This document shows, one piece after another, positions 7,369-30,448 of a stretch of DNA of 64,000 nt. Every line of letters starts with the position of its first letter. Position 1 is the stretch's first letter. This DNA is from Escherichia phage vB_EcoM_PTE-Eco09. The stretch lies in the sequence record PQ306574.1; one strand, 5' to 3'. Under the pieces are notes generated by a model. The model was not told the origin of the DNA. It worked only from the letters and a program-made list of their open reading frames with translations, and searched no databases. A program made the position numbers and the translations under genes.

Positions 7369-7404
7369 AGTCTAGTAAATTAATCAAAAGAAGGAATAGT
7401 GAAT

Positions 7405-8373
7405 ATGTTTAAACGCCAAGATTCTTCCAAACTGCAAGCTCAACTGGCCGCACTGAAAGGTGGCAACGGTTTCTCCAAAGAAGATCCGAAAGAGTGGAAG
7501 ATTAAGACTGATGCAGCAGGTAACGGTGAAGCCCTGATTCGCTTCCTGCCGTCTAAGACAGAAGACGGTCTGCCGATTGTGAAACTGGTAAACCATTCCT
7601 TCAAAGTTAATGGCAAATGGTATTGGGAAAACTGCTCCAGCACCCACGGTGATTTTGATTCTTGCCCTGTGTGCAAATATATTAACGAAAAAGACTTGTA
7701 CAATACCGATAAAACCGAATGGCAACTGATTAAGCGTAAAGCGTCTTACTACGCAAACATTCTGGTACTGAAAGATCCTCAAGCACCAGAAAATGAAGGT
7801 AAGGTATTCAAATTCCGCTTCGGTCAGAAAATTTATGATAAGATCGTTGCAATGGTGAACGTGAATACCGATATGGGCGAAGTTCCGGTCGATGTAACTT
7901 GTGTGTTCTCTGGTGCTAACTTCCTCCTGAAAGCTAAGAAGGTTGATAAACACCAGAACTATGATGATTCTCGTTTCATGCAGCAATCACAGCTTCCGAA
8001 AATTGAAGACGAAGCATATCAGAAATATCTGATGGAAAACATGGTTGATCTGAGTGAGATTGTAGCGCCTAGCCAGTTTAAACCGTTCGATGAACTGGAA
8101 ACCAAATTTAAGAAAACTATGGGCGTTTCTATGGTAGCTGGTGCTGCGGCTTCCAGTGCTGCGGCAGCGATTAACAGCCAGCTTGACGATTTTGACGCAC
8201 AGATGAATGCATTCGATTCTGGTATGACCGCAGCTAACACTGTAGTTGGTATTAACGCAGCTAGCACGGCGTTAGATTCTTCCGCTGATGACCTGATGGC
8301 ATCTCTGGACCTGGGTGGCGGTACTTCCTCCGCTTCTGATCTGGATGATCTTGACGCTCTGTTAGGGATGTAA
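7405..8373 (+). CDS. 32: single-stranded DNA-binding protein gp32
   Basis: Strong match to recalled T4 gp32 (LPSKxEDG, VNHxFKxNGKWYxExCSSTHGDxDSCPVCxYI, [29 protein letters not shown]); ATG at 7405 preceded by SD AAGGAA. Confidence 0.95.
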
Positions 8374-8433: not shown

Positions 8434-8461
8434 TTGACATGCTTATGTGGTAATGTATAAT
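8434..8461 (+). promoter_or_regulatory. early sigma70-like promoter (TTGACA-16-TATAAT) with conserved leader
   Basis: TTGACA 8434-8439, TATAAT 8456-8461, then conserved GCACACATCGAAACA leader and SD. Confidence 0.6.
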
Positions 8462-8491
8462 GCACACATCGAAACAATGGAGGATAAAAAT

Positions 8492-9706
8492 ATGTTAGTA
8501 CGTCAAGCGCATGAAATTGAATGGACTAAGGAGAAACATAATTGTAGAGCGAAAAGCCCAACAGATTTTTATGGTAAAATTTTAGAAATATGTAAAACAG
8601 AAAATTTAGTTTTTGTCGGCTTTGTTGGGGAATGGGAAGGAAACAAAACAAAAATAAAACTTATCTGCGAACATGGTCATGAATGGATATGTTCGATAGA
8701 TAAATTTGTAAGTAAAGGAACAAGATGTTCTCATAAACAATGTAAAGGTAAACGAATATCTAAAAAATTGTCTATATCCGAAACGGAATACAAAACGAGA
8801 ATTTTAGAAATATGTGAAACTGAAAATCTAATTTTCTTAGGTTTTGTTGGTGAATGGAAAGGGTGTGATACTAAAATTCGCATAAAATGCAAATACGGTC
8901 ATGAATGGGATGTATCTATATATAGCTTCACAAAAATGAATACCAGATGCCCTACATGCGCAGGACAGAACAGGACAAAAGACGAATACAAAACGAGAAT
9001 TTTAGAAATATGTGAAACTGAAAATATAATTTTCTTAGGTTTTGTTGGTGAATGGAAAGGATGCCGCACAAAAATAAAACTTAGCTGCAAACACGGTCAT
9101 GAATGGATATCTTCCATATTATGTTTTGTGTATCAAAATACTCGCTGTCCTGTATGTGTTGGTAGATTGTCTATCGACGATAGAATGATACAGATTAATC
9201 AAGTTTGCAATTCTTTAGGTTATGTAATAATTAAGATCCACGAAGAATGGAAAAACACAGAAACTAAAATTGATGTTAAATGTTTATGTGATTATATATG
9301 GACAACAACAATACATAGAGTCATACATGGGACTACAGGTTGCAGAAAGTGTGCTACACATGGATACAATACAAAAAAATCGGGGACTCTTTATATACAG
9401 AAATTAACCAACGATGATTCCTTTGTTGGTGTGAAATTTGGAATAACAAACAGAGACACGAATGAACGAATGAAAAACCAATCATCAAAGTCTAAATTCG
9501 ACCATGAGATCTTTTATGAATTGACTTTACAAGACGGTCAAAAGATCTTAGAATTAGAGAACAAGATCAAGAAAGCGATGAAAGGTAAAACTTCCTATAT
9601 CTCAAAAGAAGATATGCCGGATGGCTGGACCGAAACAGTAGCGCCGTCTGAATTGAGCACTATCATGTATATCGTAAAAACTTTTGAAAAAGAGTTGACA
9701 GCGTAA
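8492..9706 (+). CDS. protein with three tandem Cys/His zinc-ribbon-like repeats and C-terminal T5orf172/GIY-YIG-superfamily-like domain
   Basis: Repeated block YKTRILEICETENxIFLGFVGEWKGCxTKIxxxCKxGHEW...TRCPxC three times; C-terminus LYIQKL...FVGVKFGITNRDTNERMK resembles T5orf172; occupies the segG position between 32 and frd. Confidence 0.5.
   Translation: MLVRQAHEIEWTKEKHNCRAKSPTDFYGKILEICKTENLVFVGFVGEWEGNKTKIKLICEHGHEWICSIDKFVSKGTRCSHKQCKGKRISKKLSISETEYKTRILEICETENLIFLGFVGEWKGCDTKIRIKCKYGHEWDVSIYSFTKMNTRCPTCAGQNRTKDEYKTRILEICETENIIFLGFVGEWKGCRTKIKLSCKHGHEWISSILCFVYQNTRCPVCVGRLSIDDRMIQINQVCNSLGYVIIKIHEEWKNTETKIDVKCLCDYIWTTTIHRVIHGTTGCRKCATHGYNTKKSGTLYIQKLTNDDSFVGVKFGITNRDTNERMKNQSSKSKFDHEIFYELTLQDGQKILELENKIKKAMKGKTSYISKEDMPDGWTETVAPSELSTIMYIVKTFEKELTA
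8578..9150 (+). repeat. intragenic tandem repeats (about 200-225 bp units, 3 copies)
   Basis: Near-identical stretches such as ACGAGAATTTTAGAAATATGTGAAACTGAAAAT...TTTCTTAGGTTTTGTTGGTGAATGGAAAGG at about 8801 and 8999, and a diverged copy at about 8578. Confidence 0.7.
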
Positions 9707-17863: not shown

Positions 17864-17888
17864 GTCGCCCATAGTGGCGACTTTTTTG
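17864..17888 (+). terminator. intrinsic terminator
   Basis: GTCGCC-CATAGT-GGCGAC hairpin followed by TTTTTTG. Confidence 0.7.
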
Positions 17889-17898
17889 TTATTGGGTG

Positions 17899-17927
17899 TT
17901 GACAATCGGATCGGGGTATAGCATAAT
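17899..17927 (+). promoter_or_regulatory. PeSL-type early promoter
   Basis: TTGACA 17899-17904, 17-bp spacer, CATAAT 17922-17927, leader GCACCCATCGAAACGGAGG. Confidence 0.55.
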
Positions 17928-17951
17928 GCACCCATCGAAACGGAGGAACAT

Positions 17952-18170
17952 ATGGAAACAGAAGAACAAGTCATTGCATATTTTCATCGTAAAAAGATGA
18001 AACTTAGAATCGAAAAGCAGTACATCAATCACTACATTGACCGAGTTCACTTAACAAGTACACCTTACCTATTCCGGTTGATAAACCCTAGAAAACGGTG
18101 GGAGAAGTTGGATAGAAACACAAAAATAATTGATAAGCTCACCCAGTGGTGGAATGAATACAACAAGTAA
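17952..18170 (+). CDS. hypothetical protein
   Basis: 72-aa ORF after PeSL promoter. Confidence 0.4.
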   Translation: METEEQVIAYFHRKKMKLRIEKQYINHYIDRVHLTSTPYLFRLINPRKRWEKLDRNTKIIDKLTQWWNEYNK

Positions 18171-18177
18171 AAAGTAG

Positions 18178-18206
18178 TTGACACTGAATAACTGGGGTAG
18201 TAAGAT
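18178..18206 (+). promoter_or_regulatory. PeSL-type early promoter
   Basis: TTGACA 18178-18183, 17-bp spacer, TAAGAT, leader ACTCCCATCGAAACGAAA, SD GGAGAATCAAA. Confidence 0.5.
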
Positions 18207-18239
18207 ACTCCCATCGAAACGAAACAAAGGAGAATCAAA

Positions 18240-18458
18240 ATGAAATTTACTTGCACCGACTCTATCAGCAAGCACTTTGTAGTAGGCGAAGTATACGAAT
18301 CTACTACCATTCGCCAGCGTGACCTGATGGGTCGCCTTTACAATCAGCCAGTATTCATTATTGGCGAAGAATTGTTCTACATTGAAAACCGTCCGTGGGT
18401 TGCTTTCAATAAACGAGGACGCAAGGTAGCAAAATTCGAACTTGTCATTAAAAAGTAG
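18240..18458 (+). CDS. hypothetical protein
   Basis: 72-aa ORF after promoter/leader/SD cassette. Confidence 0.4.
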   Translation: MKFTCTDSISKHFVVGEVYESTTIRQRDLMGRLYNQPVFIIGEELFYIENRPWVAFNKRGRKVAKFELVIKK

Positions 18459-18487
18459 TTGACAGCATGAAACGGGGGTAGTAATAT
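18459..18487 (+). promoter_or_regulatory. PeSL-type early promoter
   Basis: TTGACA 18459-18464, spacer with GGGGGTA...TACCCCC palindrome spanning the -10 (TAATAT), conserved leader. Confidence 0.5.
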
Positions 18488-18525
18488 ACCCCCATCGAAA
18501 CGAAATACACTTTAAGGAGAATCAA

Positions 18526-18675
18526 ATGAACAACTTTGACGCGGTACTGAAAATGGCAATCGAAACTTACGCGGAGATCTCCGGCGAGAAAGTAGAGGAC
18601 ATTATCAAAGAATGTCAGAACTTTGAAAGCCAGACAGCCAAGAATGTTCAAATGTTGATGTTTGCGGTTGCATAA
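18526..18675 (+). CDS. hypothetical small protein
   Basis: 49-aa ORF (MNNFDAVLKMAIETYAEISGEK...) after SD GGAGAATCAA. Confidence 0.3.
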   Translation: MNNFDAVLKMAIETYAEISGEKVEDIIKECQNFESQTAKNVQMLMFAVA

Positions 18676-18683
18676 AAAAGCAG

Positions 18684-18712
18684 TTGACAGCATATCACGG
18701 GAGTAGTAAGAT
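18684..18712 (+). promoter_or_regulatory. PeSL-type early promoter
   Basis: TTGACA 18684-18689, 17-bp spacer, TAAGAT 18707-18712. Confidence 0.5.
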
Positions 18713-18745
18713 ACTCCCATCCCAAAACAACTAAGGAGTATCAAG

Positions 18746-26058: not shown

Positions 26059-26527
26059 TAATGAAGGGGCGAAAGCCCCTAAACCTAAAAAATTGTCAAA
26101 GAAAGAGCAACGCCAGATCCTGAAAATGAAATATGGTGGACGTTGTGCCTATTGTGGCGAGGAACTAGGGGATCGCTGGCACGCGGACCACATCAAACCA
26201 GTATTGCGACGCTCAAAGGTAGTCTATGATGAAAATGGACGAATTGCCCGTAATGATGATGGATCATGGAAATATAAGGTTGTAGGAATGCATAAACCGG
26301 AGCATGATATACTTGATAACATGAATCCGGCGTGTGTGCAATGCAATCTTTATAAAAGCTGTATGGGCTTAGAATACTGGCGTAAGTGTATACGCGAGAA
26401 CTTCCAGAAGTACATTCAGCGCAATATGGGATTGCGAGCGGCTAAACGCTTTGGCTTGCTGTCAATCCACGACCAGCCAGTAGAATTTTATTTCGAAAAG
26501 TACGATCGCGAGCATCAAGAAAAATAA
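26051..26527 (+). CDS. HNH endonuclease
   Basis: Cys pairs and HNH core: CAYCG...WHADHIKP...N...CVQCN. Confidence 0.65.
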   Translation: MCDNEGAKAPKPKKLSKKEQRQILKMKYGGRCAYCGEELGDRWHADHIKPVLRRSKVVYDENGRIARNDDGSWKYKVVGMHKPEHDILDNMNPACVQCNLYKSCMGLEYWRKCIRENFQKYIQRNMGLRAAKRFGLLSIHDQPVEFYFEKYDREHQEK

Positions 26528-26613: not shown

Positions 26614-26925
26614 ATGAAATACATCGTAACGCTGCCAATGATTGACTTCGACGGAACCATGAACACCCAGAAGACCATGAGCGCGGAGAACCAACTGAAA
26701 AACGCTACCCTGATTCGTGAAGTTCGCAAGGCACTGGCAAAAGAATTTAACACCAAAATTCATTCTGTAACTGGCGAACGTTTCGCGGATCATCTTGATA
26801 TCAACATCAAACCAGTGCGCAACGGTGTTATCTCTGTAACAACCAGCCGCCCACATGCTGACGCTGATAATCTGACCGCTCGCGCAGAAGATGTAATTAT
26901 GACCGTTATCATGGAAAAACTTTAA
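26614..26925 (+). CDS. hypothetical protein
   Basis: 103-aa ORF after PeSL cassette. Confidence 0.45.
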   Translation: MKYIVTLPMIDFDGTMNTQKTMSAENQLKNATLIREVRKALAKEFNTKIHSVTGERFADHLDINIKPVRNGVISVTTSRPHADADNLTARAEDVIMTVIMEKL

Positions 26926-26933
26926 AAAAGTTG

Positions 26934-26962
26934 TTGACAGGGGATCACCGATCCCCTATACT
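26934..26962 (+). promoter_or_regulatory. PeSL-type early promoter
   Basis: TTGACA, spacer GGGGATCACCGATCCCC, TATACT. Confidence 0.6.
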
Positions 26963-26996
26963 ACACACATACCAACGAGATATAGGAGAATCAAAA

Positions 26997-27164
26997 ATGT
27001 TCCAGACTAAAGCAGAATGCGAAGCATACATTGTAGCAAACCACGGCGAAGATTATCTGAAATTTGACATTGTAGTAGCACAGAAGATCACCGGAATGGT
27101 TGCAAAATATCTGGGTGTTAAAGAAGGTTACTATCCGAGCAACGCACCGGAAATCAACAAATAA
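26997..27164 (+). CDS. hypothetical small protein (duplicated family, copy 1)
   Basis: MFQTKAECEAYIVANHGEDYLKFDIVVAQKITGMVAKYLGVKEGYYPSNAPEINK; near-identical copy at 30281. Confidence 0.5.
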   Translation: MFQTKAECEAYIVANHGEDYLKFDIVVAQKITGMVAKYLGVKEGYYPSNAPEINK

Positions 27165-27167
27165 TAG

Positions 27168-27196
27168 TTGACAATGATTAAAGGGAGTAGTAAGAT
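27168..27196 (+). promoter_or_regulatory. PeSL-type early promoter
   Basis: TTGACA 27168-27173, 17-bp spacer, TAAGAT, leader ACTCCCATCAAGACAACAAAC, SD GGAGAATCAAA. Confidence 0.5.
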
Positions 27197-27228
27197 ACTC
27201 CCATCAAGACAACAAACGGAGAATCAAA

Positions 27229-27408
27229 ATGAAAGCTATCGAAGTTCAGAAGTACATGGAAATCATCGTTGAAGGTAAAGCACATACAGTATTGACTACC
27301 CACGTAGGATATGATAAAAATGTGCATATGCTGGTAGACAATATCGGCTGGATGAAGTTTAATCCTAACGAGAACGTACAAGCTCAAGAAATGACCATCC
27401 CTTTCTAA
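27229..27408 (+). CDS. hypothetical small protein
   Basis: 59-aa ORF (MKAIEVQKYMEIIVEGKAHTVLTTHVGYDKNVHMLVDNIGWMKF...) after cassette. Confidence 0.4.
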   Translation: MKAIEVQKYMEIIVEGKAHTVLTTHVGYDKNVHMLVDNIGWMKFNPNENVQAQEMTIPF

Positions 27409-27420
27409 GAGGAATATATT

Positions 27421-27699
27421 ATGATGCGAATTACTGCAACGCTGGATAAGACACACAAAGAAAGATTTTTCGGTATGATCTTAAAAACGCCGATTTTCGA
27501 TAATTACCTTTATGTTGACTATGAAGGTCACATTAGCTATAAATGTAAAAATGATATTCGTGATTCCTTTGGTGATAAATCACAATCTGATATTCATGAC
27601 CACTGGTGGAACCATGACGAACCTTTACGAGTTATCGCAGTTGATGTAAAAACAACAAAAGAAGCTGATAAGGTAGTGAATGATTATGAGCAAATTTAA
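27421..27699 (+). CDS. hypothetical protein, HxxHW-motif family member 1
   Basis: 92 aa; shares YLYVDYEG...IxY, HDHWW and VIAVDV blocks with ORFs at 28123, 28446 and 29147. Confidence 0.45.
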   Translation: MMRITATLDKTHKERFFGMILKTPIFDNYLYVDYEGHISYKCKNDIRDSFGDKSQSDIHDHWWNHDEPLRVIAVDVKTTKEADKVVNDYEQI

Positions 27700-27943
27700 A
27701 GAATACAAAGCATATCAACAGATCCTGCGAGTATACGCACCAGAGTTCGCCGAAAAGATGATGGAAGATGCATCAAAATGCCCGTCCTTTTCTGGAAACA
27801 AAAACCATTATTCTACTCGTATTGTATCATGGAAAGAAACATGCTACACTCAACAGTGGATAAACGTTTTCTCAAAAACAATTGGTTGGAATGGTGTTAA
27901 TTATGGGTATTCAGAGTCAATTCAAAGATTATCGAGTGTATAA
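27680..27943 (+). CDS. hypothetical protein (FKxY...ADKMMxEASxCxSF family, copy 1)
   Basis: 87 aa; paralogous to following ORF. Confidence 0.4.
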   Translation: MIMSKFKEYKAYQQILRVYAPEFAEKMMEDASKCPSFSGNKNHYSTRIVSWKETCYTQQWINVFSKTIGWNGVNYGYSESIQRLSSV

Positions 27944-28121
27944 AGAAATCTGTGCTGTATTTGATGAGAAAACAGCAGATAAAATGATGAAAGAAGCGTC
28001 ACAATGTTCATCTTTTGTTGATAACAAAGATTTAAGAGTAAATGAGATCGTGTGCTGGAGCGACACGAAACATGAAATTGTATGGCGTACCGTGTACTAT
28101 AGCCGCGACCGAGGATTATAA
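27903..28121 (+). CDS. hypothetical protein (FKxY...ADKMMxEASxCxSF family, copy 2)
   Basis: 72 aa from ATG 27903; MGIQSQFKDYRVYKEICAVFDEKTADKMMKEASQCSSF parallels previous ORF. Confidence 0.4.
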   Translation: MGIQSQFKDYRVYKEICAVFDEKTADKMMKEASQCSSFVDNKDLRVNEIVCWSDTKHEIVWRTVYYSRDRGL

Positions 28122-28122
28122 A

Positions 28123-28431
28123 ATGAAATTAACTAAAAAGATTTTCCCAGAATTGCGTAACTGTCTGTTACTGGTTACTGAATATAAGCCGTATACGATC
28201 TACTTGTACGTTGATGAAAATCTGAAAATCCGTTACTATGATTATACGTCTCCAGTGATGCAATCATTTTCTCACTCGATAGCAAATAACTGTATGAATC
28301 ACAATCATTGGGTATCAAAAACGGATGACGATGCGTCAGAAGTTGTAGTGGTTGCATGGAATCTATCACCAGCGGAAGCAGATCAAGCACGCATTCAGCA
28401 TTACGCGAAAAACAACGGTCAAACTTTATAA
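28123..28431 (+). CDS. hypothetical protein, HxxHW-motif family member 2
   Basis: YTIYLYVDENLKIRYYDY...NHNHW...VVVVAWNL; SD GAGGA. Confidence 0.45.
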   Translation: MKLTKKIFPELRNCLLLVTEYKPYTIYLYVDENLKIRYYDYTSPVMQSFSHSIANNCMNHNHWVSKTDDDASEVVVVAWNLSPAEADQARIQHYAKNNGQTL

Positions 28432-28445
28432 GTGAGGAAAATATT

Positions 28446-28724
28446 ATGTTCAAAGTAGGTGATAAGTTTATTCTTAGTCGTGATATTCTCCCTAATCTGA
28501 AAGGTTGTATCATCAATCCTAGTAAAAATTCATGGTTTTATCTGTTTATCGACGACAAACTGAATGTACGCGCAGAATATAAAGAAGGTCTTCGTACTGG
28601 TCTAGGTTTCTTTCACGATCATGATCATAGCCATTGGCTAAACGGTGGATTCGAAGCAACGGTGCTAGCGGTTGATGTGACTTACACGAACATCATAGAA
28701 AAATATCAAAAAATTATTTTATAA
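28446..28724 (+). CDS. hypothetical protein, HxxHW-motif family member 3
   Basis: WFYLFIDDKLNVRAEY...HDHDHSHW...VLAVDVT; SD GTGAGGA. Confidence 0.45.
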   Translation: MFKVGDKFILSRDILPNLKGCIINPSKNSWFYLFIDDKLNVRAEYKEGLRTGLGFFHDHDHSHWLNGGFEATVLAVDVTYTNIIEKYQKIIL

Positions 28725-28730
28725 AAAGTA

Positions 28731-28759
28731 TTGACACCGGATCGGGGATATAGCATAAT
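28731..28759 (+). promoter_or_regulatory. PeSL-type early promoter
   Basis: TTGACA, spacer CCGGATCGGGGATATAG, CATAAT with GGGGATAT/ATATCCCC palindrome spanning -10. Confidence 0.55.
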
Positions 28760-28805
28760 ATCCCCATCGAAACGAGATACACTTTCTAACTAGGAGAATC
28801 AAATT

Positions 28806-29093
28806 ATGGCATACATTACTATCACTCTGAAAGTTAACAAATTCGCTCACGCTGCACACGAAACCGATAATGCAATCCGTAACAACAAGTTCGCACGTCT
28901 GGTACGCGATGCGGTAGCTAAAGAGTTCAACTTCAAATTTGCAGATGGTAAAGTTATCACTAAATGGACTCATGACGGCGAAACTAAAGTAGAACTTGCT
29001 GATAACTTCGCAAATCAGGAATATGCACACCGTCGCATTAATGAAATTATCAGCGATGAACTCTACTACGGTGTACAGGAAGGACTGTTTTAA
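28806..29093 (+). CDS. hypothetical protein
   Basis: 95-aa ORF after PeSL cassette; followed by terminator. Confidence 0.45.
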   Translation: MAYITITLKVNKFAHAAHETDNAIRNNKFARLVRDAVAKEFNFKFADGKVITKWTHDGETKVELADNFANQEYAHRRINEIISDELYYGVQEGLF

Positions 29094-29098
29094 TATAC

Positions 29099-29124
29099 GG
29101 GGCGTTAAGCCCCACCCCTTTTCA
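29099..29124 (+). terminator. intrinsic terminator
   Basis: GGGGC-GTTAA-GCCCC hairpin then CCCTTTTC. Confidence 0.55.
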
Positions 29125-29146
29125 TCCAACTATTGAGGATAATACT

Positions 29147-29455
29147 ATGAAAGATAATATCTTTGAATTTACCCGCGAAAATCTCCCAATGTTCCGAAAG
29201 TCTCTGCTTAAACTAGAGAACAGTAATTATGATGTATATTTTTACATCACCGAAGACCTAGAGATCCTTTACGCAGATTATCCAGGTCCGATCCGTACCT
29301 TCGAAGAAGCATCGCAGTATAAAAATGTTCACGGTCATGAGCACTGGTTACGAGAAAACCCAGGTCGCAAGAAAGCACGCGTTAAAGTGATTGCGATTGA
29401 CGTAACACCAGCATACGCCGACCGGATTGCACTGAATGATTATTTGTCTAAATGA
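29147..29455 (+). CDS. hypothetical protein, HxxHW-motif family member 4
   Basis: YDVYFYITEDLEILYADY...HGHEHW...VIAIDVT. Confidence 0.45.
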   Translation: MKDNIFEFTRENLPMFRKSLLKLENSNYDVYFYITEDLEILYADYPGPIRTFEEASQYKNVHGHEHWLRENPGRKKARVKVIAIDVTPAYADRIALNDYLSK

Positions 29456-29462
29456 TTTTATT

Positions 29463-29487
29463 AGCCGACCTTAGTGTCGGCTTTTTT
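29463..29487 (+). terminator. intrinsic terminator
   Basis: AGCCGAC-CTTAGT-GTCGGCT hairpin followed by TTTTTTA. Confidence 0.7.
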
Positions 29488-29512
29488 ATTGCATAAAATT
29501 TTAAAAAAGTTG

Positions 29513-29541
29513 TTGACACCAGATCACGCCTATAGCATAAT
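29513..29541 (+). promoter_or_regulatory. PeSL-type early promoter
   Basis: TTGACA 29513-29518, 17-bp spacer, CATAAT 29536-29541, conserved leader and SD. Confidence 0.55.
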
Positions 29542-29581
29542 ACACCCATCGAAACGAGATACCACTTAGGAGAATCAAACA

Positions 29582-30246: not shown

Positions 30247-30280
30247 GCACACATACCAACGAGATATAGGAGAATCAAAA

Positions 30281-30448
30281 ATGTTCCAGACTAAAGCAGA
30301 ATGCGAAGCATATATCATTGAAACCCACGGCGAAGATTATCTGAAATTTGACATTGTAGTAGCACAGAAGATTGTAGGGATGGTTGCGAAATACCTCGGA
30401 GTTAAAGAAGGTTACTATCCTAGCAACGCACCAGAAATTAACAAATAA
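30281..30448 (+). CDS. hypothetical small protein (duplicated family, copy 2)
   Basis: MFQTKAECEAYIIETHGEDYLKFDIVVAQKIVGMVAKYLGVKEGYYPSNAPEINK; differs from 26997 copy at a few residues. Confidence 0.5.
   Translation: MFQTKAECEAYIIETHGEDYLKFDIVVAQKIVGMVAKYLGVKEGYYPSNAPEINK

Follow-up and report, generated by a model that had tools for sequence, protein, structure and literature searches.

Four paralogous genes in a hyperplastic region

We analyzed a 64,000-nucleotide (nt) stretch of the genome of Escherichia phage vB_EcoM_PTE-Eco09 (PQ306574.1), hereafter the window, and focused on four small open reading frames (ORFs) in which a sequence-only reading had seen a family of paralogous proteins. 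All four ORFs are present on the plus strand at the starts given by that reading, each with a GAGGA Shine-Dalgarno (SD) sequence 6-9 nt before its start codon. We refer to them as paralogues A to D, listed here with protein length in amino acids (aa), the equivalent ORF of phage RB49, the PHROG family, and the position encoding the conserved motif:

27421-27699, plus strand: paralogue A, 92 aa; RB49 ORF203; phrog_15972; HDHW encoded at 27595-27606
28123-28431, plus strand: paralogue B, 102 aa; RB49 ORF200; phrog_9345; HNHW encoded at 28300-28311
28446-28724, plus strand: paralogue C, 92 aa; RB49 ORF199; phrog_17255; HSHW encoded at 28626-28637
29147-29455, plus strand: paralogue D, 102 aa; RB49 ORF197; phrog_9345; HEHW encoded at 29336-29347

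B and C form a plain tandem pair, 14 nt apart, and their ATG codons lie inside longer mechanical ORFs that begin at 28042 and 28356, respectively. A scan with a family hidden Markov model (HMM) found no fifth copy in the window. The gene block is located in a hyperplastic region between the DNA ligase gene and dcm/alt, and the surrounding stretch of about 5 kb is 94-99% identical to genomes of Krischvirus, the RB49-like T4-type coliphages, with Escherichia phages kaaroe and FL37 as the best full-length matches (97.7%). Under this match, annotated functions are limited to a DNA ligase and, also upstream, an HNH endonuclease, plus a Dcm-type methyltransferase downstream; every other ORF is a hypothetical protein, the label under which A-D already stand in more than 50 deposited genomes.

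A-D are true paralogues: they belong to a single protein family and diverged long ago. When Smith-Waterman pair scores were compared with 2000 shuffles, five of the six pairs had z values of 8.1-20.0 (B-D 20.0, A-C 9.5, C-D 9.4, B-C 8.6, A-D 8.1), and none of the 2000 shuffles reached the observed score. The weakest pair, A-B, had a z of 3.5, with 18 of 2000 shuffles reaching the score, and was recovered by hhalign comparison of the A and B subfamily profiles (probability 89%, E 2.3e-6, 60 columns). Full-length PHROG HMM matches assigned A to phrog_15972 (E 2e-58), C to phrog_17255 (E 2e-65), and both B and D to phrog_9345 (E 3e-50 and 5e-49), with cross-matches to phrog_9345 from C at 7e-5 and from A at 3e-3. 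Given the shuffles, the A-B profile match, and the PHROG cross-matches, the similarity of A-D reflects real homology; the sequence-only reading had allowed that the shared blocks might be an effect of composition, and alignment scores lie far beyond what shuffled sequences yield. In a MAFFT alignment, B, C, and D are 22-26% identical to A, and pairwise identity across the four copies ranges from 22 to 31%.

The positions invariant in all four window copies are Y29, H59, H61, W62, V71, A73, and Y89 (A numbering). The histidine motif, previously written HxxHW, is in fact H-x-H-W, with a single residue between the two histidines. Two further blocks proposed from the sequence, Y-x-Y-(V/I)-D-E and (I/L)-x-Y-x-D-Y, occur exactly in B and D and in looser form in A and C.

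Wider family, selection and predicted fold

We applied the family HMM to twelve related genomic loci and a metagenomic contig and found two more distant members upstream of A-D in most relatives, which we name after their RB49 counterparts: the ORF208 type (100-106 aa, ...GHTHWL...VEVLAVDV..., E ~5e-10) and the ORF206 type (97-100 aa, ...THNHWY...LAVVLASDV..., E 1e-4 to 1e-10). The family comprises six subfamilies, and the window phage keeps four; it is without the ORF208 and ORF206 types, both of which kaaroe, RB49, and most of the other relatives we examined possess. Phage JSE has divergent family members (P0056 and P0053 types) at the positions of B and C. The C-terminus of B also varies, reading ...KNNGQTL in the window (102 aa) and ...KNNWLDLVSED in relatives (106 aa; kaaroe comparison locus L001, 4748-5068), which suggests an indel or frameshift near the 3' end.

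The metagenomic contig (L002, 2.1 kb) is syntenic and only ~45-55% identical, and encodes five family domains across four consecutive ORFs. One of these, P0058 (L002 823-1434, 203 aa), is a natural fusion of a C-like and an ORF206-like domain, directly followed by two single-domain members. In a neighbor-joining distance tree without support values, the domains of L002 cluster with subfamilies A, ORF208, B, C, and ORF206, suggesting that the duplications predate the split from the L002 lineage. This grouping and the 22-31% identity among the copies support the repeated duplication and divergence that had been proposed from the sequence.

Searches by tblastn with three different members against 50,697 phage genomes returned 56 records; every one is a Krischvirus with E. 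coli or Shigella as host. When 1.84 billion representative proteins were searched exhaustively with an HMMER profile, 14 clusters emerged, one of them probably a spurious repeat protein, with no additional domain in any of the 14. In word-indexed searches of 5.8 billion proteins, all matches came from contigs that were either short or 163-176 kb long. A related-locus search with D alone returned a single IMG/VR contig. Given that the tblastn, HMMER, and word-indexed matches are so confined, the family is a lineage-specific expansion restricted to Krischvirus-like phages. Homologues in phage T4 were considered and rejected: the family HMM gave nothing in the T4 gene 27-cd.5 region (including 30.1-30.9, alt, and 31.1), to which this local scan was confined, and no relatives turned up beyond Krischvirus-like contigs in the library-wide HMMER search. 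T4 gp31.1, an SH3-barrel protein, and gp30.3, taken as Pfam T4_Y03C, were likewise dismissed as relatives at hhalign probabilities below 1%.

We estimated the ratio of nonsynonymous to synonymous substitution rates (dN/dS) with the pooled Nei-Gojobori method on codon alignments of orthologues from 11-13 genomes. Values were 0.20 for A (13 genomes), 0.16 for B, 0.09 for C, and 0.25 for D, within the range of neighboring ORFs and the dcm gene (0.10), and A-D therefore encode proteins under purifying selection. Across 36 clusters of D-type variants, amino-acid changes are scattered over the N-terminal strand and the loops and spare H-x-H-W-L-R-E. The family had been called diversifying in the sequence-only reading, a description that fits the old divergence between paralogues but not the orthologues.

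All four proteins are soluble, single-domain, of 10-12 kDa, and hydrophilic, with a negative grand average of hydropathy, and neither a signal peptide nor a membrane segment is evident by eye. Isoelectric points range from 5.6 to 6.9 in the window copies and from 4.1 to 9.1 across the family, indicating that the members are not uniformly acidic DNA mimics; the anti-restriction mimics of the Ocr/ArdA/Arn type, strongly acidic family-wide, also gave no fold match. AlphaFold2 produced confident and concordant models for D (predicted local distance difference test, pLDDT, 83.9; predicted template modeling score, pTM, 0.78) and C (pLDDT 87.6, pTM 0.81), which argues that these are folded proteins. 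In both models the chain begins with four beta strands, the first of them trailed by a short helix, and continues into a variable loop that includes a short helix or lacks one. H-x-H-W then opens another short helix, which is followed by a further variable loop, strand five (V-x-V-[IL]-A-x-D-V), and a C-terminal helix starting ...P-x-E-A-D.... All members are predicted to share this one fold. Among 30 diverged members, only the H and W of the motif are invariant, with the first His kept in at least 90%; x is polar throughout, and W is followed by a hydrophobic residue. H-x-H-W stands between two loops whose length differs by subfamily.

The predicted fold is without a solved relative in the PDB search, where the sequence profile reached a best E of 0.11 and Foldseek with the C model a best E of 0.5. 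Structural searches of BFVD gave significant matches to family members only. Pfam searches with the four proteins and 30 family members returned scattered sub-threshold matches (PROCT, DUF5601, Strep_his_triad, Cupin_2, T4_Y03C), none of them consistent, and PADLOC, which covers defence and not anti-defence proteins, gave no match. One C-type member had been labeled "KOW2-KOW3 of Spt5" by its metagenome submitter, and the N-termini of C and of the ORF208 type look KOW-like, by eye only. A first rival explanation is that the proteins are binders of nucleic acid, RNA polymerase, or the ribosome, built on a small SH3/KOW-like beta barrel and tuning host or phage expression early in infection. Our searches yielded neither a KOW profile match nor a significant match to an SH3-like barrel, and we regard this as an improbable explanation.

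A second explanation starts from the motif itself. The proteins could be small metal-dependent enzymes or binders of nucleotide signals (hydrolases or sponges), in which the His pair would hold a metal or phosphate, the Trp would stack on a base, and the paralogues would handle different small molecules, such as immune second messengers. With about 100 aa and only two conserved polar residues, the proteins would be very small for enzymes, and one subfamily tolerates Ser at the first His. The HxHxDH, HIT, and 2H patterns are all absent: we found neither the metallo-beta-lactamase combination of HxHxDH with a distal His/Asp in an alpha-beta/beta-alpha sandwich of ~200 aa or more nor the HIT motif H-φ-H-φ-H-φ-φ (φ, hydrophobic). 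No similarity in sequence or fold to a characterized inhibitor, sponge, or phosphodiesterase appeared, although solved structures and BFVD should include the deposited phage nucleotide sponges and phosphodiesterases. We therefore consider an enzyme or sponge unlikely, while giving it more weight than the beta-barrel binder.

Promoters, gene loss and neighboring genes

The region is studded with PeSL promoter/stem-loop repeats, which we found at 26522, 26916, 27158, 28713, 29495, 29842, 30200, 30445, and 32577. Their layout is an A/T-rich tract, TTGACA, a 17-nt spacer with or adjoining a GC-rich stem-loop, a -10 box, and GGAGAATCAAA-ATG. The promoters at 26934, 27168, 28731, and 29513 (TTGACA-17-TATACT/CATAAT/TAAGAT) match the sigma-70 consensus at 10-11 of 12 positions, and the stems (GGGGATC..GATCCCC or GGGAGTA..TACTCCC) have predicted energies of -14 to -15 kcal/mol with z values of -2.6 to -5.1. 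The elements that bear on A-D are as follows:

26908-26994, plus strand: chimeric PeSL; left half as in the kaaroe PeSL upstream of gene 233, right half as in that upstream of gene 237
27158-27236, plus strand: PeSL; TTGACA, 17 nt, TAAGAT; stem-loop over the -10 box, -15.2 kcal/mol, z -5.05
28705-28775, plus strand: PeSL; TTGACA, 17 nt, CATAAT, stem-loop; marks the end of the A-B-C unit; promoter of ORF 28806 and D
29099-29113, plus strand: GC-rich hairpin GGGGC-GUUAA-GCCCC between ORF 28806 and D; -11.4 kcal/mol, z -2.7
29463-29492, plus strand: intrinsic-terminator-like hairpin and T-run directly after D, ending the D unit
29487-29557, plus strand: next PeSL promoter, after the terminator-like hairpin

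The PeSL at 27158, followed by the SD and ATG of ORF 27229, is the nearest promoter upstream of A, ORFs 27680 and 27891, B, and C, with ORF 27229 also behind it. The hairpin at 29099-29113 has no proper T-run and may be an attenuator of read-through into D. No T4 late-promoter motif (TATAAATA) occurs between ~23.5 and 42.5 kb. Given that only sigma-70-type PeSL promoters lie upstream, host RNA polymerase should transcribe A-D immediately after infection. The earlier description of these genes as early is supported by promoter context only, with near-consensus promoters upstream and no late-promoter motif nearby.

Three hallmarks of a PeSL cassette are present here: sigma-70 boxes with an AT-rich tract, a stem-loop in or over the promoter followed by SD and start codon, and recombination indels. 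A-D in fact belong to the region from which PeSL cassettes were first defined. In RB49/phi1, promoter and terminator activities of PeSLs were shown with lacZ reporters, and PeSL x PeSL recombination that inserts and deletes ORFans was described (Arbiol et al. 2010, PMC2839356). A search of that paper for 'paralog' and for the A-D ORF numbers found no mention of either these ORFs or a family relationship. In our window, the clean chimera at 26908-26994 (compared with kaaroe L001 2400-2520 and 3540-3640) indicates that ~1.1 kb was lost through PeSL x PeSL recombination; the stretch missing between the two kaaroe PeSLs holds four ORFs, two of which are HxHW-family members. In phage phiS, these two genes (ORF208 and ORF206 types) are also gone, but through a different deletion. 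The copy number of the family varies through PeSL recombination.

Such mobility raises the question of whether the family is neutral or selfish cargo of PeSL cassettes that brings the phage no benefit, or even a chance resemblance in composition. PeSL recombination freely inserts and deletes ORFans in this region (PMC2839356), and individual members are lost in some genomes, which speaks for this reading. Against this stand alignment scores far beyond shuffles and a profile-profile E of 2e-6, selection on the protein (dN/dS 0.09-0.25), confident and concordant AlphaFold models, and the retention of D in 56 of the 58 Krischvirus records that match the A-D region. We consider this explanation largely refuted and attach very little probability to it. 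Two lines of reasoning about the locus were set aside. D is annotated as split or truncated in JSE (A5 to A4; L013 3501-3808) and kvi (C3 to C2; L008 3501-3825), and we rejected these frameshifts as unreliable evidence of dispensability, since they are 1-nt homopolymer deletions with otherwise intact downstream codons and may be sequencing errors. A conserved two-gene module of a 60-aa partner and an HxHW gene was also rejected, because the small ORFs found upstream lack homology to one another.

The hyperplastic region is a mosaic of several small duplicated families. Three further paralogue pairs lie in it: a 55-aa pair (26994-27164 and 30278-30448) with 91% DNA identity over 216 nt, which is therefore recent or homogenized; an 87/76-aa pair (27680-27943 and 27891-28121; alignment z 22.8); and a 103/95-aa pair (26614-26925 and 28806-29093; alignment z 6.1). 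The 95-aa ORF of the last pair, just upstream of D, encodes a protein that is near-invariant in 13 Krischvirus genomes (dN/dS 0.01, dS 0.14), a constraint far above that of its neighbors. Elsewhere in the window, a second cluster of four PeSL-type promoter/stem-loop repeats occurs at 17881-18720, and its spacing of 225-281 nt implies very short ORFan cassettes. At 8447-9706, a 419-aa ORF contains three tandem 123-nt repeats (8564-9106) encoding Cys/His modules (...GFVGEW.G..TKI...C..GHEW...S.....TRCP.C...); the 324-aa ORF directly before it (7399-8373) is, judging from its sequence, presumably the gp32 single-stranded-DNA-binding protein.

Possible function and comparison with known systems

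We hypothesize that A-D act early as accessory, dispensable proteins and bind components of the host or of its defences, with H-x-H-W as a shared contact and the loops setting specificity, a reading to which we assign a probability of roughly 0.35. The sequence-only reading had likewise proposed host takeover or anti-defence as roles and a possible metal site at the His cluster, and both are plausible candidates. Host RNA polymerase would transcribe A-C as one unit and D in the next, terminator-ended unit. The proteins would be individually dispensable and would act through binding and not catalysis; given that the window phage and phiS are without two members and that JSE is divergent at B and C, the family appears accessory and dispensable. 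H-x-H-W could provide a common contact, binding a metal ion or else a ligand of phosphate or nucleotide type, and two subunits of a homo- or heterodimer might share it at their interface. Through the length-variable flanking loops, the paralogues may each recognize a separate host or defence target. The P0058 fusion suggests that the domains work side by side. An array of such paralogues would broaden the range of hosts or defences neutralized.

Several observations weigh against this proposal. The invariant HxH could equally mark a catalytic site. Only the two motif histidines are conserved among the 30 diverged members, a third or fourth conserved ligand being absent; in two ORF206-type clusters the motif reads S-N-H-W, with Ser at the first His; and the D model is least confident where the motif sits (pLDDT ~67). 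An arms-race signal is absent among orthologues, with dN/dS values of 0.09-0.25. Homology to a characterized protein, a known domain, and a structural relative were all not found in the Pfam, PADLOC, PDB, and BFVD searches. The literature on anti-defence or paralogues in RB49/Krischvirus and on the HxHW motif yielded no functional data, nor did two phage gene-essentiality preprints (Krischvirus/RB49) and the supplements of one accessory-gene screen.

A more specific picture, prompted by the natural two-domain fusion P0058, is that members with a hitherto unrecognized fold assemble into homo- or hetero-oligomers whose interface H-x-H-W motifs chelate metal or capture nucleotide-derived immune signals, with every paralogue tuned to its own signal or defence protein, so that a multi-specific anti-defence array would have been fixed from an ancient gene accordion in a T4-type phage. 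We consider it improbable. The probability left after our preferred reading of binding accessory proteins and the three rivals discussed above falls to something else.

Small lineage-specific ORFan families in the hyperplastic regions of T4-type phages are a known phenomenon, and the family described here is typical accessory-gene "dark matter" of this sort rather than a novel type of system. It is a cleanly delimited new family with a sharp motif and a predicted fold without a solved relative, and the result mainly tidies annotation by turning six sets of hypothetical proteins into one superfamily with the signature H-[TEDNS]-H-W-hydrophobic. If host functions or defences are indeed neutralized by A-D, the family would enlarge the anti-defence repertoire by one fold and one conserved motif, both new, and would be a natural example of T4-type phages turning tandem amplifications into a diversified gene array. 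Krischvirus phages (phi1, JSE, GEC-3S, and others) have been used or proposed for therapy. Given that the copy number of this gene block varies between Krischvirus phages, it is a candidate host-range determinant.

Three sets of known systems resemble the family in part. PeSL-flanked ORFan cassettes in the hyperplastic regions of RB49/phi1 (Arbiol et al. 2010; compare Comeau et al. 2014, PMC4122927) share with A-D the genome region, the genus, the upstream PeSL elements, and recombination-driven loss; they differ in that A, B, and C are not individually PeSL-flanked. Metallo-beta-lactamase HxHxDH and HIT proteins have in common with C (HDHDHSHW) and D (HGHEHW) an HxH element after a beta strand. 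In PHROGs, phrog_9345, phrog_15972, and phrog_17255 are kept as separate families of unknown function, whereas here these three and the ORF208 and ORF206 types form one superfamily sharing H-x-H-W and a predicted fold.

The origin of the array also has a parallel. Two reports describe tandem amplification of anti-defence loci by T-even phages facing defence pressure, in the tifA/dmd region (PMC9391042) and in a SegB-driven manner (PMC13096335). The likeness lies in small early accessory genes of a T4-type phage forming an array through local duplication. The amplifications described there are recent, identical, and laboratory-selected repeats, whereas the copies here are ancient, at 22-31% identity. 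By analogy only, T-even amplification may offer both a route to such arrays and a selective reason for them.

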